Source: Bdellovibrionia bacterium (GTDB taxonomy: Bacteria > Bdellovibrionota > Bdellovibrionia > Bdellovibrionales > JAGQZY01). Taken from it: a stretch of DNA of 64,000 bases. Each line of letters opens with the position of its first letter. Position 1 is the stretch's first letter. The DNA lies in the NCBI GenBank assembly GCA_030424665.1, contig JAUHWN010000004.1:679-64678 (forward strand). The letters run 5' to 3'. Positions 1,876 to 35,606 of this stretch are shown piece after piece. A program made the translations under genes and the position numbers. The notes beneath the pieces were generated by a model. That model searched no databases. It was given only the letters and a program-made list of their open reading frames with translations, and was not told where the DNA came from.

Positions 1876-2985
1876 ATGATTATTGGTGTGCCAAAAGAAA
1901 TTAAGATTAGTGAAAACCGCGTTGGTTTGACCGAAGCAGGTGTTCGTCAACTCGTGACAGAAGGTCACACTCTTCTCGTCGAAAAAGACGCCGGCCTTGG
2001 TTCAATGATTACCAACGAACAATACGAAAAAGTCGGAGCCAAAATTATCAATACGGCCGATGAGCTTTGGGCCCAAGCCGATATGATCGTTAAGGTGAAA
2101 GAGCCTCTCCCAGATGAGTTTGATCGCATGAAAGAAAATCAAATTCTTTATACCTACCTTCACTTGGCTGCCGAACCAAAGCTTACGAAAGTTCTTTGTG
2201 AGAAAAAGGTAAAAGCCGTTGCCTATGAAACGATCGAAGGTCCCAATAAATCTCTTCCACTTTTGAAGCCAATGAGTGAAGTGGCTGGTCGTATGGCAAC
2301 CCAGGTGGGTGCTTTCTATCTGCAAAAAGATCAGGGTGGAAAAGGTGTACTTCTAGGTGGAGTAACCGGTGTTCGTCGCGGTATCGTCACTATTATTGGC
2401 GGTGGAGTAGTTGGTACTAATGCTTTGACTATGGCAGTAGGCCTTGGCGCTGAAGTTCGCGTGATCGATGTAAACCATGATCGTCTTGAGTATCTCGACA
2501 ATGTTTACGGCAATCAAATTACTACGATTTATTCAAACCAACACAATATTGAGCGCTCAGTTCAAGAGTCTGACCTTGTCATTGGAGCCGTTCTAATTCC
2601 AGGACGTAAAGCTCCACATCTTGTTACAAAAGAAATGATATCGAGCATGGCCCCTGGTTCTGTCGTTGTCGATGTTGCCGTTGATCAAGGTGGATGTATC
2701 GAAACTTGTAAGCCAACGTCTCACGCCCAGCCGACCTATGAAGTAGACGGAGTGGTTCACTACTGTGTACCGAATATGCCAGGTGTTGTTGCTCGTACGA
2801 GTACATACGCTCTTACAAATGCTACTTTCAAGTATGCCTCACTTCTTGCCAAGTTTGGTGTTGAAGAAGCGGCGACGAAAGCTCCTGAGCTTGTAGATGG
2901 TATTAACGTCTATAACGGTAACGTCACTTACGAACCAGTCGCAAACGACCTGGATATGCCTTACGTTCCTTACAAGCCCATGTAA
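1876..2985 (+). CDS. ald: Alanine dehydrogenase
   Basis: [10 protein letters not shown] start (ATG 1876 after GGAGG), YLHLAA, GGGVVG Rossmann motif and HYCVPNMPG. Confidence 0.97.
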
Positions 2986-3010: not shown

Positions 3011-3042
3011 AAAAAAAGAGACCTCACCCGGTCTCTTTTTTT
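3011..3042. terminator. Bidirectional intrinsic terminator downstream of ald
   Basis: AAAAAAAGAGACC-TCACCC-GGTCTCTTTTTTT, a perfect stem with A/T tails. Confidence 0.85.
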
Positions 3043-3049
3043 TACCTCT

Positions 3050-3449
3050 CCTCCATTTCAAAATATTGATTTCTGTTTTTTATTTTCTCTTAGGGCGAGA
3101 CTCTCCCATTTTTTTGAGTTCCGCAGACCGGTTGTCCTTTGGGGGCTCCTTTGGGTAAGATATAGTTGTCTTCCCACTTCGAAACCCTCGGAGACCCAGT
3201 AAATTTACTCAAACAGTCCTCGGCATTTAAATCTCTCCAAACAGAATTGTGGTGCATTCGAGATTCGAGTCAAATCAGGGCCTGCGGAACTCGAAATTCA
3301 CTGGGTCTCCGAGGGTTTCGAAATAGAAAGACAAATACCCAAAGGAGCCCCCAAAGGACAATCGGATGAGGACTGTCTGAAAAAAAATGGGTATAGAGTC
3401 TCGCCCTAAGAGAAAACTATAAAAAATAGAAGGAATTTTGAAATGGAGG
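3050..3449. repeat. Large imperfect inverted repeat (arms about 3050-3206 and 3294-3449) with crossed internal 13-14 bp repeats; possible paired ncRNAs or MITE-like element
   Basis: Exact reverse-complement blocks: CCTCCATTTCAAAAT, TTTTCTCTTAGGGCGAGACTCT, CCCATTTTTTT, TTGTCCTTTGGGGGCTCCTTTGGGTA and TTCGAAACCCTCGGAGACCCAGT. Confidence 0.9.
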
Positions 3450-3462
3450 GGGGCAAAAAAAA

Positions 3463-4152
3463 CTAGTGGGGGAGGGCGATGTGGCCCCAGGTTTCGGTTT
3501 CGATGAGTGGGATTTTTCTTTGTTTGACTCGGTGAAGAACTTGCCAATGGGGATGGCCGTATTTGTTCTTGCGAGCGCTAGAAAATACCATCTTTAAACT
3601 TTTAAAAGTTGAAAAAAGTTTTTCTCCATTGGAGGTATTGCTGCCGTGATGTGCGAGCATTAAGAATTTCACTTTGTTAGATTTCTCCGCCTTGAAAGGC
3701 CAAGTTTCGAACCTTGTATCGGCGTCACCAGGAAAGTAAAATCCCTTGTAAAAGAGAAGAAAACCTGAATTATTTTTTGAAGCTCCTTGGTTTTTAAAAG
3801 ACGAAACCTGTTTAAGAGCTGATTCTTTGCAGAGAGGAATTCCAAGCCTTAAGGTTTTCGGTCGATTATCAAGGGCGAGACAGTGATTGAGTGACTTCAC
3901 TTTATAAAGAAAATTGAAATGATCTCGATCATAGTGGGAAATGTAGGTGACCTGCTTTTTTTTCTGGCAGAGCTTTTGGAAGCCTTCTCTTGGAAACCGC
4001 TCGCCACCAAAGTCAAAGTTAATGCAAGATTTAGGAGTCACAGAGGTCACCATCTGACCTTGTTCAATATTCCAGATAACAAAACCTAAAAAAGGATCGT
4101 GGTCAGAAGGAATGGAACTAAAGATGAGAAAAATAAATATAAGTCGCTTCAA
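3463..4152 (-). CDS. ComEC/Rec2-type metallo-beta-lactamase domain protein (stand-alone C-terminal half of ComEC)
   Basis: SHYDRDH (HxDxDH), FPGDA, AHHGS and NKYGHPH motifs of the ComEC MBL domain; lies directly downstream of the ComEC membrane ORF. Confidence 0.85.
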   Translation of the reverse strand: MKRLIFIFLIFSSIPSDHDPFLGFVIWNIEQGQMVTSVTPKSCINFDFGGERFPREGFQKLCQKKKQVTYISHYDRDHFNFLYKVKSLNHCLALDNRPKTLRLGIPLCKESALKQVSSFKNQGASKNNSGFLLFYKGFYFPGDADTRFETWPFKAEKSNKVKFLMLAHHGSNTSNGEKLFSTFKSLKMVFSSARKNKYGHPHWQVLHRVKQRKIPLIETETWGHIALPH

Positions 4153-4159
4153 ATTAAAC

Positions 4160-5056
4160 CTAACGAAGAAATTTTCTGCAAAAGAAGAATTGCAGAGCGA
4201 AAGAATATAAAAAAACTCCCGGTAAGGGGCTTGAATAAAGTGAATCGGGACTGACTTGGCCCAGCCACAGAAAGAAGAGTTCTAGGTTTCTCCAGATAAA
4301 TTCAACGGAGCTGGGCCAAAGCGGAAAAAGTAAGCAGGCAAATAGGGCTGCGGGTATGAGTAAAAAACCAATTAAGGGGGTGACGAGCAGATTGAGGAAA
4401 ATGCTAAAGGGGTGGGGTGGGCCCAGCGGTATGAGTAAGGGGAGGAGAAGGAAGTAAATTGCAAACTGTTGGAATCTACTTTTTTTCTCGCTACCCAAAA
4501 GAAGTGCGAGTTGGGCCACCCAACTGAGGTGAAAGGAGTAGGACTGACTCCACTGGGGGATAAAGGCGAGAAGGACCAGGCCACTCAATAGTGAACTCAG
4601 AAGGGGTGGGTGATTCAATCCTAAGGACCGACTGAGCTTTCTAAAGAGTCTAAAACAAAGAGCCCTTGCAATTGGTGGCTGAAAGTTTGTGGCGAAACTA
4701 AAGGCGACGAGGAGAGGAAGTCGGAAATATTCTAATAATTTAAGTTTTCTGCAGAGAAAGTTTATATTTTGTTCAATAAAGACCAAATGAGCCCCGGAAA
4801 CGACGATCAGGTGGAGTAATCCTGTGCTTTGTAATGCTGAATAAAGAGGACCTTTTGCTAAACTGCGTCCACATAGGAGTGCCTGAATTAGAGGCTTTTG
4901 GTGGATATCGGGTGCGATGACAAGACACTGTTTATGAAGTGTTAGGATTGCGTTTGCTAAATAACTCAGCAGATCAAAAACATCTGCTAATACTATCGAT
5001 AAGCAAACAGCAATAAACAGGCGCATATTGGCACTTTTTAGCATATATCCTTCCAA
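4160..5056 (-). CDS. comEC: ComEC/Rec2 competence membrane channel domain
   Basis: TGLLHLIVVSGAHL signature, SF.LSW motif and multiple hydrophobic segments. Confidence 0.85.
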   Translation of the reverse strand: MEGYMLKSANMRLFIAVCLSIVLADVFDLLSYLANAILTLHKQCLVIAPDIHQKPLIQALLCGRSLAKGPLYSALQSTGLLHLIVVSGAHLVFIEQNINFLCRKLKLLEYFRLPLLVAFSFATNFQPPIARALCFRLFRKLSRSLGLNHPPLLSSLLSGLVLLAFIPQWSQSYSFHLSWVAQLALLLGSEKKSRFQQFAIYFLLLPLLIPLGPPHPFSIFLNLLVTPLIGFLLIPAALFACLLFPLWPSSVEFIWRNLELFFLWLGQVSPDSLYSSPLPGVFLYSFALQFFFCRKFLR

Positions 5057-6069: not shown

Positions 6070-8073
6070 ATGAAACTTCTTTTATTTCTTTTTTTCATAC
6101 TAACTTTATTGTTAGGTGGAGATTTTCTTGGCGAAAGAGCTGTGGCTCAAGTTAAGAATCCCTCTAGTTTTAAGTCTCCCTTCTTAATCGCTCAACTCGA
6201 CGAAGACGATGATAATGATGAAGGTGAAGGTGATGAGGAAGAGGGGGAGGAAGATGAAGATATTGTTGATGGTGATGAAGACGACGATAGCGATGAGGAT
6301 GGAGAGGAAGTCACCGAGGCCGATGGAACTGAAGATGATATTTTCGCCGGTGAAGTTCTGGAGGATGAAGAGATTACCGATGAAGATTTGGAAGAAGATG
6401 GTGAACTCGACGAATTGGCTGACGACATCTTTATTGAAGAGGGTGAAGAAGAAATCTCTCCAAAAGAGAGCGAAATCGAATTGGATCAAGAACTCGTTGA
6501 AGATGCATTTTCAGAACCTCAGTTCGACAACTTTCGCGATGTAGCTCTCGAAGAGAGGCTCCATAAAATTTATCTCAATTACCAAAGTAGTCCAATTACT
6601 GACGAAGAATGGGAAAAAGAGTTCGGATCGTTGGGAGCCAATGATTACGAAGTTCAATCGGGAGATACCCTTTGGGAGATTTCGCAAATCTTTTTTGGTG
6701 ATGGATTTTTCTGGTCGAAGCTTTGGGCTGTCAATGGCCGAATTACAAATCCTCACCTTATCAACAAGGGTGATCGCCTTAACTTTGTCGGCGGAACAAC
6801 TGAGATGGGACCCCAGTTAGAAATCACTCAAGTCGCCGATGGGGCGGACTCGTCTATCTCGATCGATACTGACCAATCTTATGAGGTCGAGCCGGCAGAG
6901 GTCGAAGAAGAAGTTTCGCCAGAGCCAGAAGATTTGGCGGTCGAACTCCCAGAAGAAACACTTGAGCCACCAACTCCAAAGTATGCTGATAATGTTCCAA
7001 ATATTCAGAGGTTCGTAAAAAAGACTCCGACGTTTCTTCTTCCGGGGGCTCCAAAAATTCCTGAACCCATTAAAAAGAAAACAGATGTTCTTAAAAAGTT
7101 TCCACCTTCATTAGTAAAACGAAGCGAATTGGTAAAATCCGAATTTGACGAATTAGGTTTTGCTGTGGGAGATCGCCCAGCGCTTTATAAAGAGCCAGTG
7201 ATTACATTAGCTAACTTCATTACTGATTCGCAGTTGCCCGAAATAGGTCAAGTTGTCGAAAACCAAGCTGCCAATGAAGTTGTTTCAAATTATCAATATA
7301 CTTACATTCGAGTTGATCAACCGGCTCGAATTGGAGAGCGCTTTACAGTCATACAGAAAAAAGAAATTCTCTCGGATGAGACGGGAATTCTTGGTCAAAT
7401 TATTGAGGTGCAAGGGGAAGTTACGATAACAGATGTGATCGATCAGGGGTCTGGATACTATAGAGCTATTGTTACCAATGCGGTCAATCAGGTTTGGGTT
7501 GGATCTAGTCTGATTAATGAAAACCTTCCACGCTTTACCTTTAACGTAGAAGGAACTCCTAAAAATATTGTGGCTTCTATAATCGGTGGTCAGTTTAACA
7601 AAAAGCGTGAGCTCTTCGGAATTGGTGGGATTGTTTATTTAGATCGGGGTGCCGGGCAAGGCCTTCAAGTGGGAGACATTTTAGCGGTTTCTGCGGATCG
7701 AACAAAGAGACTTAAAAATCCAGTGATTCTTCAGGCTCCCGACTACAGTGCATTGTTGAAGATTGTTAAAGTTTACAATGATGTTTCGACGGCCCTGGTC
7801 GTTAAGTCTTTTGACGATATACGCCCTGGCGATCGAACCGGATTAACGGTCCTTAGAAAAGATTTAGACGTTTACGTTCCGGAAGATGATAGCGACAGTT
7901 TTAAAGAGGTGACTCCCGATCAGTTTAGATTGCTTGAGGATCCGGAAGAGCTTGATGACGAAGAAGACCTAGAAAGTGAATCGGCATCAGCAGGATTGAG
8001 TTCGGAATTCTTCACTGATGGAGATGAAGAAGACGAAGATCTCGATGACGAAGACGAAGATGACGACCTATAG
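6070..8073 (+). CDS. tsaP: LysM peptidoglycan-binding protein, TsaP-like (type IV pilus secretin-associated), with long acidic extensions
   Basis: Signal peptide; YEVQSGDTLWEIS...W..N..ITNPHLI LysM variant; C-terminal VYLDRG..QGL.VGD beta domain; located immediately upstream of dprA, the known tsaP synteny. Confidence 0.65.
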   Translation: MKLLLFLFFILTLLLGGDFLGERAVAQVKNPSSFKSPFLIAQLDEDDDNDEGEGDEEEGEEDEDIVDGDEDDDSDEDGEEVTEADGTEDDIFAGEVLEDEEITDEDLEEDGELDELADDIFIEEGEEEISPKESEIELDQELVEDAFSEPQFDNFRDVALEERLHKIYLNYQSSPITDEEWEKEFGSLGANDYEVQSGDTLWEISQIFFGDGFFWSKLWAVNGRITNPHLINKGDRLNFVGGTTEMGPQLEITQVADGADSSISIDTDQSYEVEPAEVEEEVSPEPEDLAVELPEETLEPPTPKYADNVPNIQRFVKKTPTFLLPGAPKIPEPIKKKTDVLKKFPPSLVKRSELVKSEFDELGFAVGDRPALYKEPVITLANFITDSQLPEIGQVVENQAANEVVSNYQYTYIRVDQPARIGERFTVIQKKEILSDETGILGQIIEVQGEVTITDVIDQGSGYYRAIVTNAVNQVWVGSSLINENLPRFTFNVEGTPKNIVASIIGGQFNKKRELFGIGGIVYLDRGAGQGLQVGDILAVSADRTKRLKNPVILQAPDYSALLKIVKVYNDVSTALVVKSFDDIRPGDRTGLTVLRKDLDVYVPEDDSDSFKEVTPDQFRLLEDPEELDDEEDLESESASAGLSSEFFTDGDEEDEDLDDEDEDDDL

Positions 8074-23119: not shown

Positions 23120-23911
23120 ATGAAAAAGCGAATGGGTACAATTCTTCTTTCTTTGATTATTTTTTTCTCAGTGATTTCTGTCAGCGGAAGTCAGTCAAAA
23201 AAAATTGATCAACTCAGTGAAGAACTTCTTCGGCTCAGATCTGAGGTTGAACGACTTAACGAAGAAGTCGAAACTAGTAAAGAAATTCATCAAAATGAGC
23301 TTAAAGCCCTTTCAATTCAGAAAAGTGAGTTGGAGTCTGACCTACAAAGGCAGAGGTTAACTCAGGATCAGCTTAAATCGAAAATTGTTAAAATCAAAAC
23401 GAAGCTCAAAGATGAGGGCCTCGGTAAAGGGGAGCAAAAACAGGTTCTAACCAATCATATTCAAGAACTGCGCGCCTATATTTCTAGTTCTCTCCCTTTT
23501 CAAAAAGACATGCGCATGGAGGCTTTAGATAAGATCGAGTCTTCTATTGAGTCAGAAACGATGGCAACAGAGGTCGCCTTTAATCGCCTTTGGAATTTTA
23601 TAGAGGACGAAATTCGTTTAACTAAAGAAAGCGGTCTTTTTAAGCAAAAAATTACGACTAAAGGGGGCGATCATTTAGCAAATGTGATTCGCTTAGGTAT
23701 GATGGCGTTATTTTATCGCTTGGCAGACGGTCAAGTGGGAATGGCGCAAAAAAAACAGGGTTCCTGGGTTTTTATTGAGCTCAAGTCGGGGGAGTCTAAG
23801 GAACAAATCGAAACCCTTTTCACTTCTTTCAAAAAGCAGATTCGCAGTGGTTATTTCGAAATTCCCAATATATTGAGTGCAAAATCGATCTCTTTCGATG
23901 GTGAGGTATAA
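23120..23911 (+). CDS. DUF3450-like coiled-coil protein (TtpB-like)
   Basis: Signal peptide, a long coiled coil, LPF...R motif and RLGMMALFY; first gene of the ExbB cluster. Confidence 0.75.
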   Translation: MKKRMGTILLSLIIFFSVISVSGSQSKKIDQLSEELLRLRSEVERLNEEVETSKEIHQNELKALSIQKSELESDLQRQRLTQDQLKSKIVKIKTKLKDEGLGKGEQKQVLTNHIQELRAYISSSLPFQKDMRMEALDKIESSIESETMATEVAFNRLWNFIEDEIRLTKESGLFKQKITTKGGDHLANVIRLGMMALFYRLADGQVGMAQKKQGSWVFIELKSGESKEQIETLFTSFKKQIRSGYFEIPNILSAKSISFDGEV

Positions 23912-23912
23912 A

Positions 23913-25271
23913 ATGAAGTTCGGTGTTATCACCCTAGGTATTTTTTCGGCTTTGATATTTATGAACCCAGGTACTGTTCATGCCTCCTCCCAATCAGAGA
24001 CATCCGTGAAGGCGGAAACTGATGCCAATAAAAAGTCCCAACTCGAAAAAGCCTTTATGCGAGAGTTCGCCTTTTTGAAATCCCAAAAGCGAATTCTAGA
24101 AAAGCGAAAGACCCAGGCTTCGGGGTTTTACGGACAGCAAATTAAGAAAATTAAAGGTCAAATTCGGCAACTCGAAAAGACCTTAATTGCTGTCAGTGCC
24201 GAAACTGAAGAATTAAATCAAAATCTTCAAATGGCTCAGAGATCAGTTGAAAGCGTCGACGACAGGGTTAATCTTCTAGAAAACACTATGACTCAGGTCC
24301 AGACGAGTTTAAAAAACCTGGGGCTCAAAGACTCTTGGACGCAAAAAGAAGAAATTGTCAATTTTGAAAAAATGGACAGGCTTCTTAGAAATTCTTTGGT
24401 GGGACTCAATAGAGCCAACCAAGTCATAAAGTCTAAGAGTTCCTACTTTGATGAAAATGGTAAAGAAATCAATGGCGAAGTCCTTCGGATTGGGAGGGTT
24501 GCTTCTTTTGGACTCGCTACTGGTAAAACAGGAAATTTGGCACCCGCAGGAGAGGGGGAATACAAGCTCATTTCTCAATTTGCTGTCGAGAAAGAGCTTA
24601 AGGCTGAAACCCTTCCGATTTTTCTTTATCAGGATGGTCAAAAGGCTTTTGAAGAAAAGTCAGAAAAGACGGTCTTATCAACCATTCAGGCAGGTGGCTC
24701 AATTGCCTGGGTTATTGTTTTATTAGGCCTTTTAGGACTCTTCTTCATTGTCGCACGTTACTTAATGCTAAGAAAAGCGAGTCACGAAGAGGCTGATCTG
24801 GTTTCGAAAGTCGAGGCAAGGCTTGTCGACGATGGACACGAAAGCGCCAAAGAATTTTTAGCTAAGAAAACCACACCGACAGCTCGAGTTCTAAATTACT
24901 GCCTAGAGAAAGTGGGTATTGACCGTGAATCTATGGAAGATGTAATCAACGAAAGCCTTTTGCAAGAGGGACAGAAGCTCGATCGATTTAGTACAGTCAT
25001 CCTAGTTTTTGCGGCGATTGCTCCACTTTTGGGGTTACTGGGCACGGTTACGGGGATGATTTCTACTTTCGATATTATTACAGAGTTTGGTACGGGTGAC
25101 CCAAAGCTGCTCTCTAGTGGTATTTCTGAGGCTTTAATCACAACAGAATTAGGTTTGATCGTGGCAATTCCAACTCTTCTGTTGGGACACTTGCTTTCGG
25201 CCTGGTCGAAAAAAATAAAAGAATCTACTGAGGCAGCTGCCCTTAAAATTTGCCAAGTTATTTGTAGGTAA
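23913..25271 (+). CDS. Large MotA/TolQ/ExbB protein with periplasmic N-domain (TtpC-like)
   Basis: Signal peptide, periplasmic region with RIGRV, then APLLGLLGTVTGMI and GISEALITTELGL; likely start is ATG 23913. Confidence 0.88.
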   Translation: MKFGVITLGIFSALIFMNPGTVHASSQSETSVKAETDANKKSQLEKAFMREFAFLKSQKRILEKRKTQASGFYGQQIKKIKGQIRQLEKTLIAVSAETEELNQNLQMAQRSVESVDDRVNLLENTMTQVQTSLKNLGLKDSWTQKEEIVNFEKMDRLLRNSLVGLNRANQVIKSKSSYFDENGKEINGEVLRIGRVASFGLATGKTGNLAPAGEGEYKLISQFAVEKELKAETLPIFLYQDGQKAFEEKSEKTVLSTIQAGGSIAWVIVLLGLLGLFFIVARYLMLRKASHEEADLVSKVEARLVDDGHESAKEFLAKKTTPTARVLNYCLEKVGIDRESMEDVINESLLQEGQKLDRFSTVILVFAAIAPLLGLLGTVTGMISTFDIITEFGTGDPKLLSSGISEALITTELGLIVAIPTLLLGHLLSAWSKKIKESTEAAALKICQVICR

Positions 25272-25275
25272 GGTT

Positions 25276-25821
25276 ATGCAGGTATTTGAGCGAATCATTG
25301 AACTCATACTTTCAGGTGGATTTGTCGGAGTGCCTCTCGCCGTTCTCACCTTTGTAATGTGGATCGCTCTGAGTTATCGCTACTTTTTACTGAAGTCGAT
25401 TCAAACAACTGACTTTGTGTCTGAGTTAGAGTCCCTCGATAGAAGGGACCTTAGAAATCAAGCCGATGTTGTTTTAAGTGAGTGGAAGTCTCGACTTTCA
25501 GAAAAGAACACTTTGGTCAGTGTCATCGTTGTAATCGCTCCTTTACTGGGGCTCCTTGGTACCGTTGACGGTATGATCGAAACATTTGAGTCTCTCGGAG
25601 ATATGAATCTCTTTTCTCAAAGTGGTGGAATCGCGGGCGGAATTTCTTCGGCATTGATTTCTACGCAAATGGGTCTTTGTGTGGCTATTCCAGGCCTCAT
25701 AGCGATGCGATTACTATTTGGAAAGCAAAAGACTATTTCGGCTCAATTAGAAATCAAGAGAGATACTTTTTTACAACGACAGTCCCTAGGTGGTCTGTCT
25801 CTTCCGAAAGAGGAGGCCTAA
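25276..25821 (+). CDS. exbB: ExbB proton channel protein
   Basis: APLLGLLGTVDGMI and GIS.ALI.TQMGL. Confidence 0.92.
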   Translation: MQVFERIIELILSGGFVGVPLAVLTFVMWIALSYRYFLLKSIQTTDFVSELESLDRRDLRNQADVVLSEWKSRLSEKNTLVSVIVVIAPLLGLLGTVDGMIETFESLGDMNLFSQSGGIAGGISSALISTQMGLCVAIPGLIAMRLLFGKQKTISAQLEIKRDTFLQRQSLGGLSLPKEEA

Positions 25822-25823
25822 AA

Positions 25824-26228
25824 ATGAGACGCAGAGGAAGCCAAAGTGAAGATCAGTTTGGAATTGATATCTCGCCCCTTATTGACATGGTTTTTATCCT
25901 TCTGATCTTTTTCATGGTTTCTACGACCTTTGTCAAAGATATGAAGCTCGATTTGGAACGGCCCGGAGCATCGAGCGCACAGCCGGCATCGAGTAAGAGT
26001 ATTCGTGTTTACATAGACAAAAACAAAGAAGTATTCCTTGATGGTCAGTCCGTAAGAATATGGGTGCTTCAGGGTAAGTTGAGAGACCTTCTTCAAGCAT
26101 CAAATCAAAAATCGGTTTTAGTCGTTACAGATTTAGGTGTACCCGCTGAACGTCTGATAGAAGTCGTTGACCAGTGTCGTCTAGCCGGAGCTGAAGATGT
26201 TGGTGTTGCAACCGAGCAGGAGTCTTAA
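25824..26228 (+). CDS. exbD: ExbD biopolymer transport protein
   Basis: IDISPLIDMVFILLIFFMVST; start at ATG 25824 after GGAGG. Confidence 0.95.
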   Translation: MRRRGSQSEDQFGIDISPLIDMVFILLIFFMVSTTFVKDMKLDLERPGASSAQPASSKSIRVYIDKNKEVFLDGQSVRIWVLQGKLRDLLQASNQKSVLVVTDLGVPAERLIEVVDQCRLAGAEDVGVATEQES

Positions 26229-26864
26229 TTGAAAGACTTTTTAAATAGACTGCAGATTAAATCAATTTTAGTGGGTACAGGACTCAGCTTTTTGATTTTA
26301 TGTGTAATGGCCTATTTGAACGATATTGTGAACGTGCAAAATTCAAAAACAAATGGAAGCACGGTTAATTTTAACGTACAAAAAATCGAAAAAAAGAAGA
26401 CTGCAAAAATAAAGAAGCCTAAAAAACGCAAGAAAAAGCGCAAGAGCCAGGCGCAAAAAAGAGCAAGGCCTGATTTAAAGACAGCTCTATCCGGAAGCTC
26501 ATTCGGTTTGGACCTTTTTCAGGTTGATCTCGGGTTAGGGGATTCCTTAGGAAAAGATCTTCAAGACATGGTTATGACCGAAGATAGTGTTGATAAAAAG
26601 CCGGTAGCTAGTCAAAGAGGCGTCGGCCTGGAATATCCAGCCGAAGCAAAGGCTCGAGGCATTCAAGGTTATGTTAACTTAAAGGTTCTTATCGATCGGC
26701 GTGGCAGAGTTGAAAAAGTGAGAGTTCAAGAATCTAGCCCCAGTGGAGTATTTGATCAGATCGCTATGGATGCGATTCGATCTTGGGTTTTTTCTCCAGC
26801 CGAATATCAAGGAGAGCCCGTTCGCGTTTGGGCCAAGCAATTAATCCGATTTGAATTGGAGTAG
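26229..26864 (+). CDS. tonB: Short TonB energy transducer
   Basis: N-terminal TM and YP.EA..RGIQGYV...F.PA..QG TonB_C domain; 211 aa. Confidence 0.92.
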   Translation: MKDFLNRLQIKSILVGTGLSFLILCVMAYLNDIVNVQNSKTNGSTVNFNVQKIEKKKTAKIKKPKKRKKKRKSQAQKRARPDLKTALSGSSFGLDLFQVDLGLGDSLGKDLQDMVMTEDSVDKKPVASQRGVGLEYPAEAKARGIQGYVNLKVLIDRRGRVEKVRVQESSPSGVFDQIAMDAIRSWVFSPAEYQGEPVRVWAKQLIRFELE

Positions 26865-26867
26865 ACT

Positions 26868-28040
26868 ATGAAGTTTAATTTCCTGCAAAAATTCAAGAGT
26901 GTCAGCACTTTAGTTTTGACCTATCTAATGATGATCAGCTCGGCTCCAGCTCAAGACGATGTCGATTTTTACTCTATTGCACAGAGATTGGTCCAAGATG
27001 CTCAGTACAATCGTGCCTTAACATATATAAAAAGTATTCCTGAGGACGCAGATATATCGAAGGCTCGGATGAGCTTGTTAAAAGGAATTGTCTTTGTCAA
27101 TACCAAGGCCTTTGAGGAGGGGCGAAAAGAGCTGGAGAGAGCTTTGCTTCAGTTTAAAGATGAAGAGCTAAAGATTCCCCCTGAGGTATATCTCTATTAT
27201 TGTCAGAGCTTCTTTTTGCAAGGGGATTTTACCGGTAGCCTAAAATCATTAGAAAAATACTCTAAGGAATTAGCAAGGGAACCAAAGGCCCAAATTATCC
27301 GAGCCAATAGTTTATGGAAACTCGACCGCAAAGAAGAGGCATGGCAAATTGTACTCAAAGGAGAAGAGAATTTCCCAAATGAAATTCTTTTTTCACGACA
27401 GAAAATTGTCTTTATGATGGAGCTTGGACTCTATGAAAATGCTTTTCAGTTAGTTTTGCAGTATCTAGTTGAAAACTCAGCTCCCCCTCAAGAGTTCCTC
27501 AGTTTTGCCGTGAACTTTAGAAAAGCTAAACAAGAAAAGAATTCACTTAAACTTTTTGAAGTGGCTCGGCTAAGATTTCCGAGAAATGAAATGATATTGT
27601 TGGAATTTGCTAATAGTTACTACGAAAAAGGAAAGCTCTACCGAGCGGCTGAAATCTTTGAAGAATTGAGTCGTAGAAATACAAAGTACGTCAAAGAGGC
27701 CTCTGAACTTTATCGACGGGCAGGGTATCCGATGCGTGCCCTTGCTTTAAATAGAAAAATACAAGATTCAGAGACGAAGTTAAAACAGAGGCTAGCAATT
27801 TATATTGATCAATCTGATTTTGAATTAGCATCGAGCATGGAGATGGAGTTAAATAACTTAGGTCTCGGGAAAGACCAAGATATTAGCTACGCCCTAGCTT
27901 ACAGTCATTTTCAGATTGGGAAGATTCAGCAGTCTAAAGAACTCTTGCGAAGAGTTACCAGAGAGGATCTTTACCGCAAAAGTCTAGCTTTAAAGTCATT
28001 GATGTCAGCCTGTCTTGATGGTCAGGGAGCTTGTTTGTGA
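26868..28040 (+). CDS. TPR protein (TtpD-like)
   Basis: Signal peptide followed by tandem helical TPR-like repeats; follows tonB. Confidence 0.75.
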   Translation: MKFNFLQKFKSVSTLVLTYLMMISSAPAQDDVDFYSIAQRLVQDAQYNRALTYIKSIPEDADISKARMSLLKGIVFVNTKAFEEGRKELERALLQFKDEELKIPPEVYLYYCQSFFLQGDFTGSLKSLEKYSKELAREPKAQIIRANSLWKLDRKEEAWQIVLKGEENFPNEILFSRQKIVFMMELGLYENAFQLVLQYLVENSAPPQEFLSFAVNFRKAKQEKNSLKLFEVARLRFPRNEMILLEFANSYYEKGKLYRAAEIFEELSRRNTKYVKEASELYRRAGYPMRALALNRKIQDSETKLKQRLAIYIDQSDFELASSMEMELNNLGLGKDQDISYALAYSHFQIGKIQQSKELLRRVTREDLYRKSLALKSLMSACLDGQGACL

Positions 28041-31000
28041 AGCTGATTCTATCATTGCTCGTCATTCTCAGTGTTTGTAATCCTGCTAGAGCTCAGCATA
28101 TTAAAGCAGAGATAAATGCTGACCCGGATTCAAATGTCGACACAAATTCCGTTGCTGAAATCGAAGTCTATCTTTTTGAGTCTGGAGAGGCTGTTCGGTT
28201 TGCGCCCATTTTAATCGATGGAGCTGCAGTCGCTAAAACAGACGAGGATGGATTTGCTATCCTCCAAAGTTTTACGGGGCTCAGAACTATTGAATTCGTT
28301 TTGAATCAAGGCAGAACACTTAAATATCCAGCTCAGTTTAAGAAAGATCAGCCTGGAAAACTCTTCATTAACATCAGAGGAGAATCTTTAGTTTCTGATT
28401 TTGAAAAAACCCAAAGGTCGATCGAGAAAAAAAGGATCGTCGGTCAGAATGTTGTTGAATTGCAAGGAACCGTTAAGGACGCGGAATCTGGAGCTCAACT
28501 CAGAGGTGCAAAAATCTTTTTTATGGGTATAGAAGAAGAGGCTGTGAGTGACGTCTATGGTAACTTTCGTGTCAAAGTTCCAGTTGGTCAGCATACCCTA
28601 ACAGTGGTTCACCCCAAGTATTCAAGTAAAACTATTAAAGACCTCGAAATCAGCACGAGGGCAAAAACAATTTCTATAGAATTGGAGTCGTCGGGCCTAA
28701 AGCTCGATGACTTTGTCGTTCTAGCTCCTAAGGTTCAGGGATCCGTATCGGCCCTCATCGAGCTCAGAAGAAATACGAGTAATGTAGCGGAAGTACTTGG
28801 TGCCGAACAAATTTCGAAATCAGGTGATAGTGATGTCGCAGCCAGTTTAAAAAGGGTGACTGGTCTAACCCTAGTGGATGGAAAATTTGTTTATGTAAGG
28901 GGGCTCGGTGAGAGATATTCGAGCATTTTACTCAATGGGTTTAATCTACCGAGTCCGGATCCATATCGACGGGTGATCCCTCTTGATATGTTTCCTACCA
29001 GTGTTCTTGAATCGATGGTCATCCAAAAAAGTTACTCTCCCGATCGTCCTGGTGAATTCGGAGGAGGGACTATTGAGATGCGTACTAAGTCGATCCCTAA
29101 GAAGTTTTTCTTTAAATACTCTTTTGGAAGTTCAGTCGAAGACTACGAGAACTTCAAGTCCTACAATGGAGGTAAAACCGATGCACTTGGATTTGATGAT
29201 GGAACAAGGGCTCTCCCGGTAGCATTAAAAGAGGCATTGGCTGGAAATCGTGAACTTAGAGAAGTGAATCCATTTAACCCAGAGGGATTTACAGCCGAAG
29301 AGTTAACGACTCTCTCTAGGAGCCTATCGAATAATTATTCGATCAAATCAGAAGATCCTGAAGTTCCTTATGACATCAAAGTTGCCAGCGGAGGTCAGTT
29401 GGATCTTGGAGTAGGGCGCTTTGGTCTCATGGGGTCCGTGCTTTATAAAAATAGTTTCGATCAAGACATAAAACAACAGTCCAAATATTTGTCCACTGGA
29501 GAGGAGCTTGTCGAAAGTGAGTCACGACGTATAGAGGAAAATGAAAAGACGGTTAATTTAGCACTCAGTTTAGACTTTGGTTTTCAGTGGAATAAGAAAA
29601 ACAGGATTGAGGTAACTAATTTGTTACTTCGAAAGACGACAGATACTGTCGAAATAAATTCTGGTACAAATGCCGAAGGTGAAAATACGATCGATACCAC
29701 TCTAGACTACATTGAAACTCAATTGAGATCCCATCAATTGCGAGGAAGTCACGAGGACCTCTTTGCGGGAAATGGCATAGATTGGCGAGTCTCTCAATCT
29801 CAGGCTCTGCGAAGTAATCCTGATCAAAGATTTTATCGGTTCGAAGAAGTTGACAGTGAATATCGTTTCAGTAACCGCAATGATGGCAATCAAAGGTTGT
29901 ACAATGAGCTCGTCGACGACATTATTGATTATGGCTTCGACCTGAGTATTCCTGTAAGTCTGGGTTCTATCGTTGATAGTTTTAAAATTCGAACGGGTGC
30001 GAGTCTGACCGAAAAAAGGCGAGAGAATGACACGAGACGTTTCACGTTTTCGGATAAGCGAACTAATGGGTCGGCTGAAGATTTAAAAGGAGATATCAAC
30101 GAGGTCCTAGGGCAAAGCGCAATTGGTCGGGATGGTTTTCTGTTGGTCGAGTCAACCCGGGCGACGGATAACTACTTTGCGAAACAGCGAATCGGAGCCA
30201 TTTATGCGCTCATGGAGAGCGAGATAACTTCTAAGCTAAAGATTCTCGCTGGGGCCCGATATGAGAATTCAAAACAGGAAGTGACGACTTTTGATTTACA
30301 CAACAAAGACAACTTACCAATTCGTGCGGAACTTGAAACAGTAGATATTCTTCCAGTTTATACGGCAACGTATAAGTTGAATCGAAAGGGTAATATGCAG
30401 CTTCGAGCCTCATACTCAGAGACCCTTTCGCGACCTGATTTTAGAGAATTGAGTAGCTCAACTTATACCGACGATATTGACAATATCGAAGTTGAAGGGA
30501 ATCCAGAGTTAGAAACGGCAGTCATAAGTAATTCTGATTTGCGATGGGAATATTACTTTAGTTCCGATGAGCAAATTAGTTTTGGAGGTTTTTACAAGTA
30601 CTTCGAGAAACCGATCGAAGCCATCATTAAGCCAGGAACAGAAGGAAAGCGATCATTTGATAATGCGAAGTTTGCGCGTAACTATGGCCTTGAGTTTGAT
30701 ACTCGATTTCGTCTCAAGCCAATGAGTAAAAATTTAAGAAATTTTACTATTGGAACTAATGTTTCTAGAATTTTATCAAAGGTTGAAATCGATGAAGCTT
30801 CCAAGTCTATTCAAACCTCTGATGTTAGGCCACTTCAAGGACAGTCTCCTTACGTCTTTAATTTTCAGCTGGAGTATGACCGCAAAAAATCGGGAACTAC
30901 GGCTTCTCTTTTGTACAATGTCTTTGGCCAAAGAATCACTGAGGTGGGAACAAGTAAGCGTCCAGATATAATTGAAGATCCCTTTTATCAACTGGATTTT

Positions 31001-31153
31001 GTTCTCAAACAAAAAATTGGAAAAACTTATTCTGTTGGATTGAAGGCGAAGAATCTGCTCGACCCCTACGCGACGGCTCGGCAAGGTGCTGAGGTAACTC
31101 GACGTTATAAAAAAGGGCGTGCATTTAGCCTTGCTTTTTCGGGGAGTTACTAA
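28031..31153 (+). CDS. TonB-dependent receptor with N-terminal carboxypeptidase-regulatory-like domains
   Basis: G.VKDAESG..L.GA extension, plug region (YVRGLGERY) and a beta-barrel ending in an aromatic residue (FSGSY). Confidence 0.93.
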   Translation: MFVKLILSLLVILSVCNPARAQHIKAEINADPDSNVDTNSVAEIEVYLFESGEAVRFAPILIDGAAVAKTDEDGFAILQSFTGLRTIEFVLNQGRTLKYPAQFKKDQPGKLFINIRGESLVSDFEKTQRSIEKKRIVGQNVVELQGTVKDAESGAQLRGAKIFFMGIEEEAVSDVYGNFRVKVPVGQHTLTVVHPKYSSKTIKDLEISTRAKTISIELESSGLKLDDFVVLAPKVQGSVSALIELRRNTSNVAEVLGAEQISKSGDSDVAASLKRVTGLTLVDGKFVYVRGLGERYSSILLNGFNLPSPDPYRRVIPLDMFPTSVLESMVIQKSYSPDRPGEFGGGTIEMRTKSIPKKFFFKYSFGSSVEDYENFKSYNGGKTDALGFDDGTRALPVALKEALAGNRELREVNPFNPEGFTAEELTTLSRSLSNNYSIKSEDPEVPYDIKVASGGQLDLGVGRFGLMGSVLYKNSFDQDIKQQSKYLSTGEELVESESRRIEENEKTVNLALSLDFGFQWNKKNRIEVTNLLLRKTTDTVEINSGTNAEGENTIDTTLDYIETQLRSHQLRGSHEDLFAGNGIDWRVSQSQALRSNPDQRFYRFEEVDSEYRFSNRNDGNQRLYNELVDDIIDYGFDLSIPVSLGSIVDSFKIRTGASLTEKRRENDTRRFTFSDKRTNGSAEDLKGDINEVLGQSAIGRDGFLLVESTRATDNYFAKQRIGAIYALMESEITSKLKILAGARYENSKQEVTTFDLHNKDNLPIRAELETVDILPVYTATYKLNRKGNMQLRASYSETLSRPDFRELSSSTYTDDIDNIEVEGNPELETAVISNSDLRWEYYFSSDEQISFGGFYKYFEKPIEAIIKPGTEGKRSFDNAKFARNYGLEFDTRFRLKPMSKNLRNFTIGTNVSRILSKVEIDEASKSIQTSDVRPLQGQSPYVFNFQLEYDRKKSGTTASLLYNVFGQRITEVGTSKRPDIIEDPFYQLDFVLKQKIGKTYSVGLKAKNLLDPYATARQGAEVTRRYKKGRAFSLAFSGSY

Positions 31154-32132: not shown

Positions 32133-33995
32133 TTGGTGTCTATTAGGTCCTTACTTTGCCTATTGGTTTTATTGGGGTGGATGAGTCCGGGGTTCGCACA
32201 AGATTTTGTTCCAGGGGAAGTCATCGTAAAATTGAAAGATCGCGACTCTGGCAAAGCCAATTTCATGAGTAAGTCGTCAGCTTCGATGACTCTCAAAAAA
32301 TCCTATCCGGTTTTAAGAACTCACAAAATGGCCCTAAAAAGCGGTGCCGATGTTATGGCCACAGTCGATGCCCTTAATAATGACCCCGACGTCGAATATG
32401 CTGAGCCAAATTATTACCTCAGAAAATCAAGCACTGAGCAGGCCCAAGGCCGTGTCGATTACGAAAGTGCCCAGGCGGCATTTTATGAAGTTCAATCTAT
32501 GAGTGGATCGAGCTTTAATCAAAGTAGCGCCAATATTCAGGCCGAGCAGGCTTGGGATTTATTGTCCGGGGGGGCGACTCCTCCGGTGATCGCAGTCATT
32601 GATACTGGAGTTGATTATAATCACGATGTTTTTCAAGACAGCGGAGCCATGTGGGTTAATCCCGGAGAAGTGCCTGGTAATGGAATTGACGATGATAATA
32701 ATGGTTACATTGACGATATTCATGGCTGGAACTTTGTGGCCAATAGTAATTCGCCCATTGATGACGATGATCATGGAACTCACGTAGCTGGAATTATCTT
32801 GGGATCAACCCAGAATATTTTGGCGTCACCAATCGGTTCAGCTCAAATTCGAATTATGGCTCTTAAGTTTCTTGATGACCAGGGGATCGGAACCACGACG
32901 GACGCCATTGAAGCTATTCATTATGCGATAAACAATGGTGCAAAAGTTCTCAATAACTCATGGGGTGGAGGAGGATATTCTCAAGCTCTCAGAGACGCTA
33001 TTGTATCCTCTAATAATAATGATCTAGTTTTTATTGCCGCCGCTGGAAACCAAGCTTCAAATAATGATAGCTACGCGACTTATCCTGCCAACTACGACAT
33101 TCCCAATGTATTTTCGGTAGCGGCCACGAACGACTACGACTACCTCGCTAGTTTTTCGAACTATGGTAAGAGTACAGTCCATATAGCAAGTCCCGGTGTT
33201 TCCATATACAGTACACTCGCTGGAAATAGCATGGGGTATCTTTCGGGAACAAGTATGGCAGCTCCCTTTGTTGCGGGTCTTGCGGCTATGATGGTTCATG
33301 AAGAAAGTAGTATCGATGGCTTTCAAGTAAAAACGATAATTGAAGATACGGCCAATCGTGTTCTTAGTTTACAAAACCGTGTTGCCAGTGAGTCTCGGAT
33401 TAATATGTACAACGCTGTTAATGTCGCAGCGACGGGACAAGCTCTCAATTATCAGCCAGGGAGTAACATTGACCCCTCAAGAGAAATCGCTTCTGAAGTT
33501 CAGGGTGGTGGTTGCGCGGCAATTCTTCCGCTTATAAAAGATATTATTGGTGGTCCTAAGGGACCATCGGGTCCCGCGAATTACTTACGCTTTCTCGGAC
33601 TGCTTCTGGTTCTTCTTTCTCCGGTAATGATTCTATTGACCATGAGAAATGCGAGTAAAGAACGAGAGGCCCAAGGCGGTGGACAGAATAGACGACGTTA
33701 TGACCGTTTTAAAGTCGATACTCAGGTGCAGATTTTCTTTGGTAGTCAGCAGCTTTGTGGTGCTGTCAGTTGTATTTCCCTGGGGGGGGTAAGAATTGAT
33801 ACCCATGATTCACTTCACGACGGAGATCAAATTTCAATGAAGATCCAAGGACCTGACGAAGATAGCTACATCGAAGCCAGTGGTGAAATCGTTTGGTCGA
33901 AGGATCAAGAATCCTATGGTGTGAAGTTCAACGAAATCGATGATATGAATAAGGTTCAGATCAGCGAGTGGACAAAGGTTCTAGAAAAAGACTAA
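32133..33995 (+). CDS. S8 subtilisin-like serine protease with C-terminal TM segment and PilZ domain
   Basis: Signal peptide, propeptide, triad IDTG / HGTHVAG / GTSMAAP; GGGC plus hydrophobic segment; RRRYDR and ISLGG PilZ motifs. Confidence 0.9.
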   Translation: MVSIRSLLCLLVLLGWMSPGFAQDFVPGEVIVKLKDRDSGKANFMSKSSASMTLKKSYPVLRTHKMALKSGADVMATVDALNNDPDVEYAEPNYYLRKSSTEQAQGRVDYESAQAAFYEVQSMSGSSFNQSSANIQAEQAWDLLSGGATPPVIAVIDTGVDYNHDVFQDSGAMWVNPGEVPGNGIDDDNNGYIDDIHGWNFVANSNSPIDDDDHGTHVAGIILGSTQNILASPIGSAQIRIMALKFLDDQGIGTTTDAIEAIHYAINNGAKVLNNSWGGGGYSQALRDAIVSSNNNDLVFIAAAGNQASNNDSYATYPANYDIPNVFSVAATNDYDYLASFSNYGKSTVHIASPGVSIYSTLAGNSMGYLSGTSMAAPFVAGLAAMMVHEESSIDGFQVKTIIEDTANRVLSLQNRVASESRINMYNAVNVAATGQALNYQPGSNIDPSREIASEVQGGGCAAILPLIKDIIGGPKGPSGPANYLRFLGLLLVLLSPVMILLTMRNASKEREAQGGGQNRRRYDRFKVDTQVQIFFGSQQLCGAVSCISLGGVRIDTHDSLHDGDQISMKIQGPDEDSYIEASGEIVWSKDQESYGVKFNEIDDMNKVQISEWTKVLEKD

Positions 33996-34727: not shown

Positions 34728-35606
34728 TTAGTTTCCTCGCTCTTCTGTCGTTCCATAGGTTTCTGTAAAGAAGTCCATGTCCACTTCGGGGACTTTAGCT
34801 TCGCAAATATCTTTGATCCCTTGGGGAGCATTTCTGAGTTCACCGGATTGACTCACACCAAGCACGAGCCACAAGTCTTCAGCAATGGCGTCTTGTCTAT
34901 AGACGCCATTACAGAAAACGTTGACGTTATCAAAGAGTGCTTTTGGGAAGATGCCTGCTTGTCCAGCAGCTTCGATACCAAATTCAGGACCTTCTCTTTC
35001 GAATTGAAGAAGAACATCATTGTTGTCGCCAAGAGCGTACTTTTCACTCTGGGGATCAATGTAATCGAAGACCTCTGGGTTTCTGATGGCTCGAAAAACA
35101 TGTTGAACCATACGGTTTGCGCTAACCTCGGTCAGTTGGGTTTTAGTCCAAATTTCATCACTATCGCGCATACCACGGGCCACAGTTTTGTACTTACCAT
35201 TATCTAAGCGTCTAGAGACAGTGATATAGGCTTTTAATCGGTGACCTCTTGGGCTGCCTTCTCCACCATAGCGAATCCATTGGGATCTATTCAGGTGAAG
35301 GTTGAGGATAATGCTGACTTTATAGGCGGCATCTTCTTGATCGGCTCCTCCTAATCGTCCACCGGAGTGCTCTTCGACGCTGGGAACGAACCACTCGTGT
35401 TTTCCGATCATCATATTTTGAATGCGACTTTCACTTTGAGTTAGTTCAATTTCGCTCATATCGCCACCTTGTTCATACTCGACAAAGACGCGGTTAAACT
35501 GCATTCCGCACTCAACATAGGGGAATTCGGTTATACTTTCTAGCTCGACAGCGAAGACTGTTGAAGACAAAAGCAGTAGTAGGGGGATTGATAAAAGTTT
35601 TTTCAT
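34728..35606 (-). CDS. Secreted hypothetical protein
   Basis: Signal peptide (STVFA); ATGA overlap with the stop of the upstream metalloprotease. Confidence 0.75.
   Translation of the reverse strand: MKKLLSIPLLLLLSSTVFAVELESITEFPYVECGMQFNRVFVEYEQGGDMSEIELTQSESRIQNMMIGKHEWFVPSVEEHSGGRLGGADQEDAAYKVSIILNLHLNRSQWIRYGGEGSPRGHRLKAYITVSRRLDNGKYKTVARGMRDSDEIWTKTQLTEVSANRMVQHVFRAIRNPEVFDYIDPQSEKYALGDNNDVLLQFEREGPEFGIEAAGQAGIFPKALFDNVNVFCNGVYRQDAIAEDLWLVLGVSQSGELRNAPQGIKDICEAKVPEVDMDFFTETYGTTEERGN

Follow-up and report, generated by a model that had tools for sequence, protein, structure and literature searches.

Template switching between inverted repeats yields homogenisation of the arms together with inversion of the spacer (PMC8604942, PMC8794818). 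Swapped flanking repeats serve as a mark of intramolecular replicative transposition in trans or of recombination between inverted copies, as described for IS26 and Tn4401 with the order 1 [IS>] 2 ... 1' [<IS] 2' (He et al. 2015, PMC4471558). The locus described here, a nested inverted repeat in a 64-kb stretch of DNA (the whole of which is called the window below), resembles both. It has in common with the swapped duplications of IS26 and Tn4401 the succession of a copy, inverted DNA and an inverted copy, the flanking boxes X..X' and Y..Y' being likewise inverted. Here, however, the repeat is non-coding and 77 nt long, the "duplications" measure 13–18 bp and are accompanied by arm homology that extends beyond them, and neither a transposase nor a further copy has come to light. 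Template switching of the Ripley model shares with our locus the block-wise joint changes of the arms and the inversion of the intervening DNA, although the described cases mostly involve repeats of about 10–20 bp with spacers of a few bases, whereas here nested arms of about 190 bp bound inverted segments of 87 to about 400 bp.

The invertible segments fimS, hin and the Bacteroides invertons are also bounded by inverted repeats and occur in both orientations. Unlike them, our locus has no nearby recombinase, no conserved inner promoter and very long, homogenised repeats, and its two orientations are seen between genomes and not within a population. The short repeats of the ERIC/IRU, Correia/NEMIS and BIME/REPIN groups are similar in being non-coding, in lying by a terminator between convergent genes, in forming hairpins at the 3' ends of mRNAs, and in their patchy presence among relatives in either orientation. 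These are multi-copy families with a consensus, in contrast to a single known locus with no sequence similarity to them and no Rfam match, which is moreover three to four times longer and has nested arms. The par locus of pAD1 is a type I toxin-antitoxin system with a toxin ORF, in which the convergent, overlapping RNA I and RNA II start from mapped promoters and share a bidirectional terminator lying between their genes. If an earlier note on this DNA were right in reading it as a pair of small RNAs, the two systems would have convergent units, common repeats and a 3'-end overlap in common; here, by contrast, no promoters, shared terminator or toxin ORF were found. We regard the locus as a variation on phenomena already known, not as a system of a new kind. 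The reading that we prefer, with middling confidence, is a lineage-specific, self-homogenising and flipping nested inverted repeat that is passively transcribed in the 3' UTR of comEC.

Setting and architecture of the palindrome

The element sits between the terminator of the alanine dehydrogenase gene ald (1876–2985, plus strand) and the stop codon of the last comEC ORF of a Bdellovibrionales-like genome; the best named Ald homologues are labelled Bdellovibrio, Pseudobdellovibrio or Bdellovibrionales. Its parts and immediate neighbours are listed below, where L011 denotes the sister genome GCA_030427805.1.

3011–3043, no strand: bidirectional intrinsic terminator after ald (A7-GAGACC, loop TCACCC, GGTCTC-T8)
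3037–3115, plus strand: left outer arm, module alpha-1, pyrimidine-rich, ending in GACTCTCCCATTTTTTT and pairing with 3381–3462
3116–3129, plus strand: box X, GAGTTCCGCAGACC, occupying slot A of the left arm; part of a 28-nt stretch that the flipped L011 element shares without change
3130–3208, plus strand: left inner arm E1, module beta-1, pairing with 3294–3365
3209–3221, plus strand: box Y, TCAAACAGTCCTC, occupying slot B of the left arm; part of a 25-nt stretch that L011 shares without change
3222–3278, no strand: asymmetric centre, 57 nt, poorly conserved
3279–3292, minus strand: box X in slot B of the right arm (plus strand GGCCTGCGGAACTC), with a 20-nt run identical to L011
3293–3367, minus strand: right inner arm E2, module beta-2; its "short" loop has 7 nt fewer
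3368–3380, minus strand: box Y in slot A of the right arm (plus strand GAGGACTGTCTGA)
3381–3462, minus strand: right outer arm, module alpha-2, which has 3-nt insertions not present in alpha-1 and ends in A8 (3455–3462)
3463–4152, minus strand: 229-aa ORF with homologues, downstream of the ComEC "Competence" ORF (4160–5056, minus strand)

The ald terminator is a perfect 13-nt inverted repeat with a 6-nt loop and is kept in relatives that have no element; its T-run (3036–3043) is at the same time the outermost base-paired part of the palindrome. The consensus terminator scan missed this evident terminator both here and in L011, so its negative results in this region need caution. On the other side, the stop codon of the 229-aa ORF abuts the A8 run in which the palindrome ends. 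Before the element there is no separate terminator for this ORF, and its mRNA would therefore have to cross the element to reach the shared terminator. The comEC gene appears as two adjacent ORFs (3463–5056, minus strand), of which 4160–5056 has the Pfam Competence domain, whereas the 229-aa ORF has no Pfam match and carries an SHYDRDHF motif. The same split is present in the gene calls of L011, of the Logan contig L007 and of the distant relative L010. A 27-nt A/T-rich palindrome (3581–3626) lies inside the coding region of the 229-aa ORF.

The earlier note had delimited a unit at 3116–3380. The matches within it are real, but the homology of the arms runs 79 nt further out (3037–3115 against 3381–3462), so that the whole object is a 426-bp non-coding quasi-palindrome (3037–3462) with a 57-nt asymmetric centre, and the unit is its inner part. 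The order on the plus strand is outer arm, X, E1, Y, centre, X', E2', Y', outer arm. As terminal inverted repeats, the arms 3037–3208 and 3292–3462 match at 141 of 161 aligned positions. The inner arms share the scaffold reported before, with GGGGGCTCCTTTGGGT at 3141 (plus strand) and 3337–3352 (minus strand) and TTCGAAACCCTCGGAGACCCAGT at 3178 (plus strand) and 3300–3322 (minus strand); both strings have one copy per strand and occur nowhere else in the window. E1 carries the "long" loop TAAGATATAGTTGTCTTCCCA, kept at 25 of 26 positions in L011, and the tail CCCAGTAAATTTAC, while the loop of E2 contains a 19-nt run identical to L011. Exact inverted matches between the inner arms reach 23–26 nt in the window and 31 nt in L011, and the window has no other long palindrome.

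The crossed complementarity on which the earlier note was built is present and far beyond chance. Box X is complementary to 3279–3292 and box Y to 3368–3380, with one mismatch each; at fixed positions the chance of such matches is 1.6e-7 for X and 6e-7 for Y, and shuffled versions of 3116–3380 hold a mean of 0.02 inverted 13-mers with at most one mismatch. Followed along their own strands, the arms differ in the order of the boxes, which is (X, Y) in one and (Y, X) in the other. Each arm is built of an outer module, alpha, and an inner one, beta (the scaffold E), which look like diverged tandem copies of one unit: every module finishes in ...CCC, followed by 7–9 A/T and a 13–14-nt box of the X or Y kind, and in L011 the string ACTCTCCC-W8-X is common to outer and inner modules over 32 nt. 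The ends of the palindrome are T8 and A8, themselves part of it, and the empty sites in relatives are too diverged to show whether the outer ends carry a target-site duplication. A third, degenerate copy of the "tail + Y" unit lies in the centre at 3228–3244, visible as a direct repeat (76%) between 3200–3216, TAAATTTACTCAAACAG, and 3228–3244, TAAATCTCTCCAAACAG.

Inversion in the sister genome and joint change of the arms

Syntenic loci were reached through homologues of the 229-aa ORF and of Ald. The element is present in L011, to which the Logan contigs L012 and L007 are identical, and as a partial arm in GCA_041259675.1 (L013). No element is found in L008/L009, L014/L015 and L010, which have 28–84 nt at the same position; in L008/L009 (about 80% nucleotide identity) and L014/L015 the terminator and a 55–84-nt spacer alone separate the two genes, and L008 can be aligned with the window up to 3042 and again from 3473 onwards. 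Since the more distant relatives are without the element, it is a gain in a narrow lineage. The comparative sample amounts to about 2.5 independent sequences, two of which (the window and L011) are full-length. That the Logan contigs break off within the element is explained by an exact inverted repeat of 31 nt in L011, which equals the word size of the assembler (k = 31), and these breaks are therefore not evidence for mixed orientations.

In L011 the whole element is reversed between the same flanks with the crossed arrangement retained, and everything between the outer arms is inverted. The two elements agree at 73% of positions in reverse and 62% forward, as against 91–94% forward identity in the flanks, and all markers of arm type swap sides: the slot-A box, the long and short loops (the long one marked by TAAGATATAG.TGTCTTCCCA) and the two 3-nt insertions. 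The partial arm of L013 agrees with the L011 orientation, so both orientations are seen between genomes (the window versus L011 and L013). Instead of a single fixed orientation, opposite ones were thus found, which supports the inversion signature or two-state DNA suspected in the earlier note; the concerted evolution of the arms described below, expected if they recombine or template-switch, backs it as well. A couple of positions within the outer 45 nt follow the side and not the arm type, which places the breakpoints in the outer arms or in the T8/A8 runs. For the same reason inversion in situ appears more likely than two separate insertions.

The four-arm alignment has 91 invariant columns, 31 that are genome-specific and common to both arms, 34 that are arm-type-specific across genomes and one that is position-specific. 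When the window element and the flipped L011 element were folded together as an inter-arm hairpin of 137 pairs, 30 pairs proved to be changed on both sides and kept, seven to be changed on one side and kept as G-U, and none to be broken. The changes are clustered, with as many as 11 neighbouring columns altered together (10 of 11 consecutive pairs in columns 94–104, for instance), and such contiguous blocks of double changes argue for templated events in the DNA rather than for compensation one step at a time. At the DNA level the arms do interact, changing together in blocks in each genome. Selection on an RNA hairpin would also fit the 30 kept double changes and the lack of broken pairs. Between the arms, transition mismatches are G-U rather than A-C in 14 versus 5 cases on the genomic plus strand of both genomes. 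This strand test was considered as a sign of RNA and set aside, as the G-U excess is explained by the positive GC skew, which is constant, and does not depend on how the element or comEC is oriented, so that it says nothing for RNA.

The blocks of change adjoin identical runs of 28, 25, 20 and 19 nt, which cover X, Y, X' and the E2 loop; four identical runs of at least 17 nt were reached in 4 of 20,000 shuffles. Conserved blocks of the element include CCCATTTTTTTGAGTTCCGCAG and AAATTTACTCAAACAGTCCTCGGC. The boxes had earlier been called variable slots. The arms do differ there, but the slots sit in the longest stretches that are identical across related genomes. Such runs on the boxes, A/T tails and loops could reflect purifying selection, a case that seems strong against the genome-wide identity at four-fold sites (0.77 in this comparison, range 0.73–0.78) and is weakened by low local divergence: four-fold differences beside the element number 5 of 39 and 1 of 16, and the neighbouring spacer is identical at 123 of 123 positions. 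The argument from selection is not firm because the local neutral divergence is low, and it is safer to say that boxes and loops seem to evolve at about the local background rate, while the paired blocks appear to be replaced wholesale and alike in both arms. A candidate relationship in which the c-block of L011 would be a copy of Y was rejected, the 18-nt match at 78% being close to chance level. Divergence between the sister genomes is itself mosaic where 1753–2985 of the window aligns with 5878–7110 of L011: the lpxC-ald spacer is the one identical at 123/123, ald codons 1–60 have 0 of 29 four-fold differences and codons 121–180 have 17 of 40, a pattern that suggests recent homologous exchange between lineages.

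Searches for further copies and for an enzyme that might move the element gave negative results. When 198 kb of sequence, the window included, were searched with an nhmmer profile of the arms, no second copy emerged. Phage and plasmid collections held nothing relevant, and viral contigs scanned with conserved blocks gave nothing or chance matches. Exact scans with fast-changing strings specific to the window returned chance single matches only, both in genome contigs (CCTTTGGGGGCTCCTTTGGG) and in metagenome contigs (TTCGAAACCCTCGGAGACCC). A spurious ORF (P0129) over one L011 arm was retrieved by exact look-up and phmmer as nothing but itself, with no relatives among 1.84 billion representative proteins; six-frame translations of both elements against proteins scored nothing, not even the known L011 ORF, so that this search carries no weight. 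No recombinase or transposase Pfam match occurs in the ORFs of at least 150 aa of the window, and the gene calls of L007 and of the 13 kb surrounding the L011 copy include no such gene.

Folding and signals for transcription

The whole region folds at -227 kcal/mol (z = -19.9). Within it, the earlier note had proposed two paralogous, convergent RNAs of about 175 nt, each closed by its own terminal stem. The corresponding folds, 3116–3292 on the plus strand and 3380–3209 on the minus strand, do close in this way in the window (z = -3.1 and -2.9) and in L011 (z = -3.2 and -1.7), their interiors differing between the two genomes. The terminal stems form, but X:X' and Y:Y' never covary, with 24 of 27 pairs invariant and 0 covarying in the two full sequences, so that covariation speaks neither for nor against them. 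The two Y:Y' mismatches, including one L011-specific change, are G-U on the strand of the type-2 RNA. The 5' hairpin said to be common to both RNAs is real as a sequence scaffold but folds no better than shuffles (z from -0.06 to -1.8); eight consensus pairs of the E hairpin are kept across five arms, with one compensatory change.

A scan for the sigma-70 consensus found no conserved promoter of that kind. Its match on the minus strand of the window core (3273–3246) is weak, one hit against 0.7 expected, and is absent from L011. No stem followed by a T-run comes after 3292 on the plus strand or after 3209 on the minus strand, and Rfam 15 has nothing at gathering score, an E-value limit of 10 yielding weak terminator-like or chance matches. 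No matches to X or Y with up to two mismatches that would suggest RNA targets occur in the window. The proposal of two sRNAs finds no backing in a conserved promoter, a terminator, an Rfam match or stem covariation. No small ORF, type I toxins included, is conserved between the window and L011; a tiny frame of the MGESRPKRK type in the outer arms was dismissed, its sequence changing wholesale between the genomes. A ribozyme, a retron and a CRISPR-like array were likewise discarded, with no model matching and no reverse transcriptase or cas gene present, as was a dif or terminus site, there being no switch in GC skew.

Explanations and their consequences

According to the preferred reading of a self-homogenising nested repeat, the inversion seen between the outer arms would have a counterpart further in, where the inner arms E1 and E2' would invert the 87-bp core by the same process, as the crossed boxes suggest. 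Before such an inversion each inner copy would have been flanked by its own direct pair (X..X and Y..Y), and after it each would carry one X and one Y, in the order X-E1-Y-core-X'-E2'-Y'. Flipping the core back does indeed restore X-E1-X and Y'-E2'-Y', as had been pointed out before. The agent may be homologous recombination, template switching during replication or an intramolecular transposition-like event, and RecA-type recombination and template switching are equally good candidates. The terminal stems of the proposed RNAs would then be an automatic by-product of the rearrangement, and the comEC mRNA, through passive transcription, would cross the element and fold as one long interrupted hairpin. 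The long exact inverted matches of the inner arms, which offer a substrate, and the outer flip already observed both support a flip of the core. It counts against it that the uncrossed isomer (X-E-X ... Y'-E'-Y') is not seen and that both independent lineages are crossed. Additionally, the 79 nt of arm homology outside slot A are not predicted by a simple model of a repeat with target-site duplication, and outer and inner modules that resemble diverged tandem copies fit poorly with a simple transposon story.

Among the other explanations, a functional interrupted hairpin RNA of about 430 nt, made from comEC or as its own transcript and with its stems under selection, is rather unlikely. Its working parts may be the unpaired islands, namely X opposite Y', Y opposite X' and the two E loops, which may act for example as protein-binding sites, in RNase III control or in alternative loop-to-loop pairing. 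The 137 pairs with their double changes all kept, the extreme z-score of the fold, the coincidence of the longest identical runs with boxes and loops while the stems vary, and an mRNA that should traverse the element from the unterminated 229-aa ORF are what such an RNA would lead one to expect. Against it, the double changes come in contiguous blocks of up to 11 positions, the element occurs in either orientation relative to comEC, the G-U excess tracks the genomic plus strand and not the comEC-sense strand, and the islands are not clearly more conserved than the local background, where divergence is low. We consider it unlikely that the element belongs to a dispersed, low-copy mobile family of the foldback or MITE type whose two orientations are separate insertions at the same site. 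Presence and absence at the orthologous site, long terminal inverted repeats, an intergenic place beside a terminator and an element more diverged (73% identity) than its immediate flanks would all agree with such a family; against it stand the single copy in 198 kb, the lack of anything relevant in phage, plasmid and viral collections, the spurious L011 ORF without a relative in 1.84 billion representative proteins, and the position-specific outer-arm bases, which suggest a flip in situ.

It is quite improbable that the locus is a programmed invertible switch, in which a recombinase encoded elsewhere flips the element or its core and thereby alters transcription, the boxes X and Y or the A/T runs being the putative sites on which it would act. 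That both orientations exist, that nested inverted repeats allow four states, that the boxes are conserved without covariation as protein-binding sites would be, and that the core holds one sigma-70-like match (3273–3246, minus strand) can be quoted in favour of such a switch. However, no recombinase is encoded by ORFs of at least 150 aa in the window or in the 13 kb of L011, the promoter match is missing from L011, homogenised repeats of 77–79 nt are far longer than usual recombinase sites, and the breaks of the Logan contigs are accounted for by the 31-nt exact repeat. The pair of convergent, partly antisense sRNAs of about 175 nt, 3116–3292 (plus) and 3380–3209 (minus), engaged in mutual regulation or regulating shared targets, is very improbable. 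Terminal stems that form in both genomes and Y:Y' mismatches that turn into G-U on the type-2 RNA strand speak for it, yet conserved promoters, terminators, an Rfam match and stem covariation are lacking, the interior folds differ between genomes, E folds no better than shuffles and the window offers no X or Y targets within two mismatches. A more speculative idea, as improbable as the programmed switch, is that of a two-bit nucleic-acid switch, either a hairpin (RNA or extruded DNA) with reciprocal loops or a set of four DNA isomers. It could toggle between the in-register hairpin and a cross-paired, pseudoknot-like fold, with boxes and loops as putative protein recognition sites, perhaps tied to comEC and competence.

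If the DNA-level reading is true, the locus provides a clean natural example of nested inverted repeats in a bacterial chromosome. It also illustrates that palindromic DNA can mimic paired, structured RNAs with strong covariation, here 30 kept double changes, which calls for caution in covariation-based discovery of non-coding RNAs in palindromic DNA. A potential hairpin of about 430 nt would, moreover, lie in the 3' UTR of a competence gene. Should the boxes prove to be selected, the reciprocal internal-loop architecture would be new.

Several other genes of the window deserve mention. Three giant ORFs of 1795, 2693 and 2456 aa (35603–40990, minus strand; 42958–51039 and 51239–58609, plus strand) have a near-absent Pfam signal, with weak matches to Met-zincin DUF4953 and Peptidase_G2 and none in the third. 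A 667-aa protein (6070–8073, plus strand) has very long Asp/Glu-rich runs at both ends, and the homologous gene calls show a weak LysM match. At 32133–33995 (plus strand), a subtilase (Peptidase_S8) that has a fervidolysin-like prodomain carries a PilZ domain fused to its C-terminal end, which hints at a c-di-GMP-linked protease. The cluster at 23120–31153 (plus strand) encodes DUF3450, ExbB, ExbD, TonB, a TPR protein and a TonB-dependent receptor with a CarboxypepD_reg domain.
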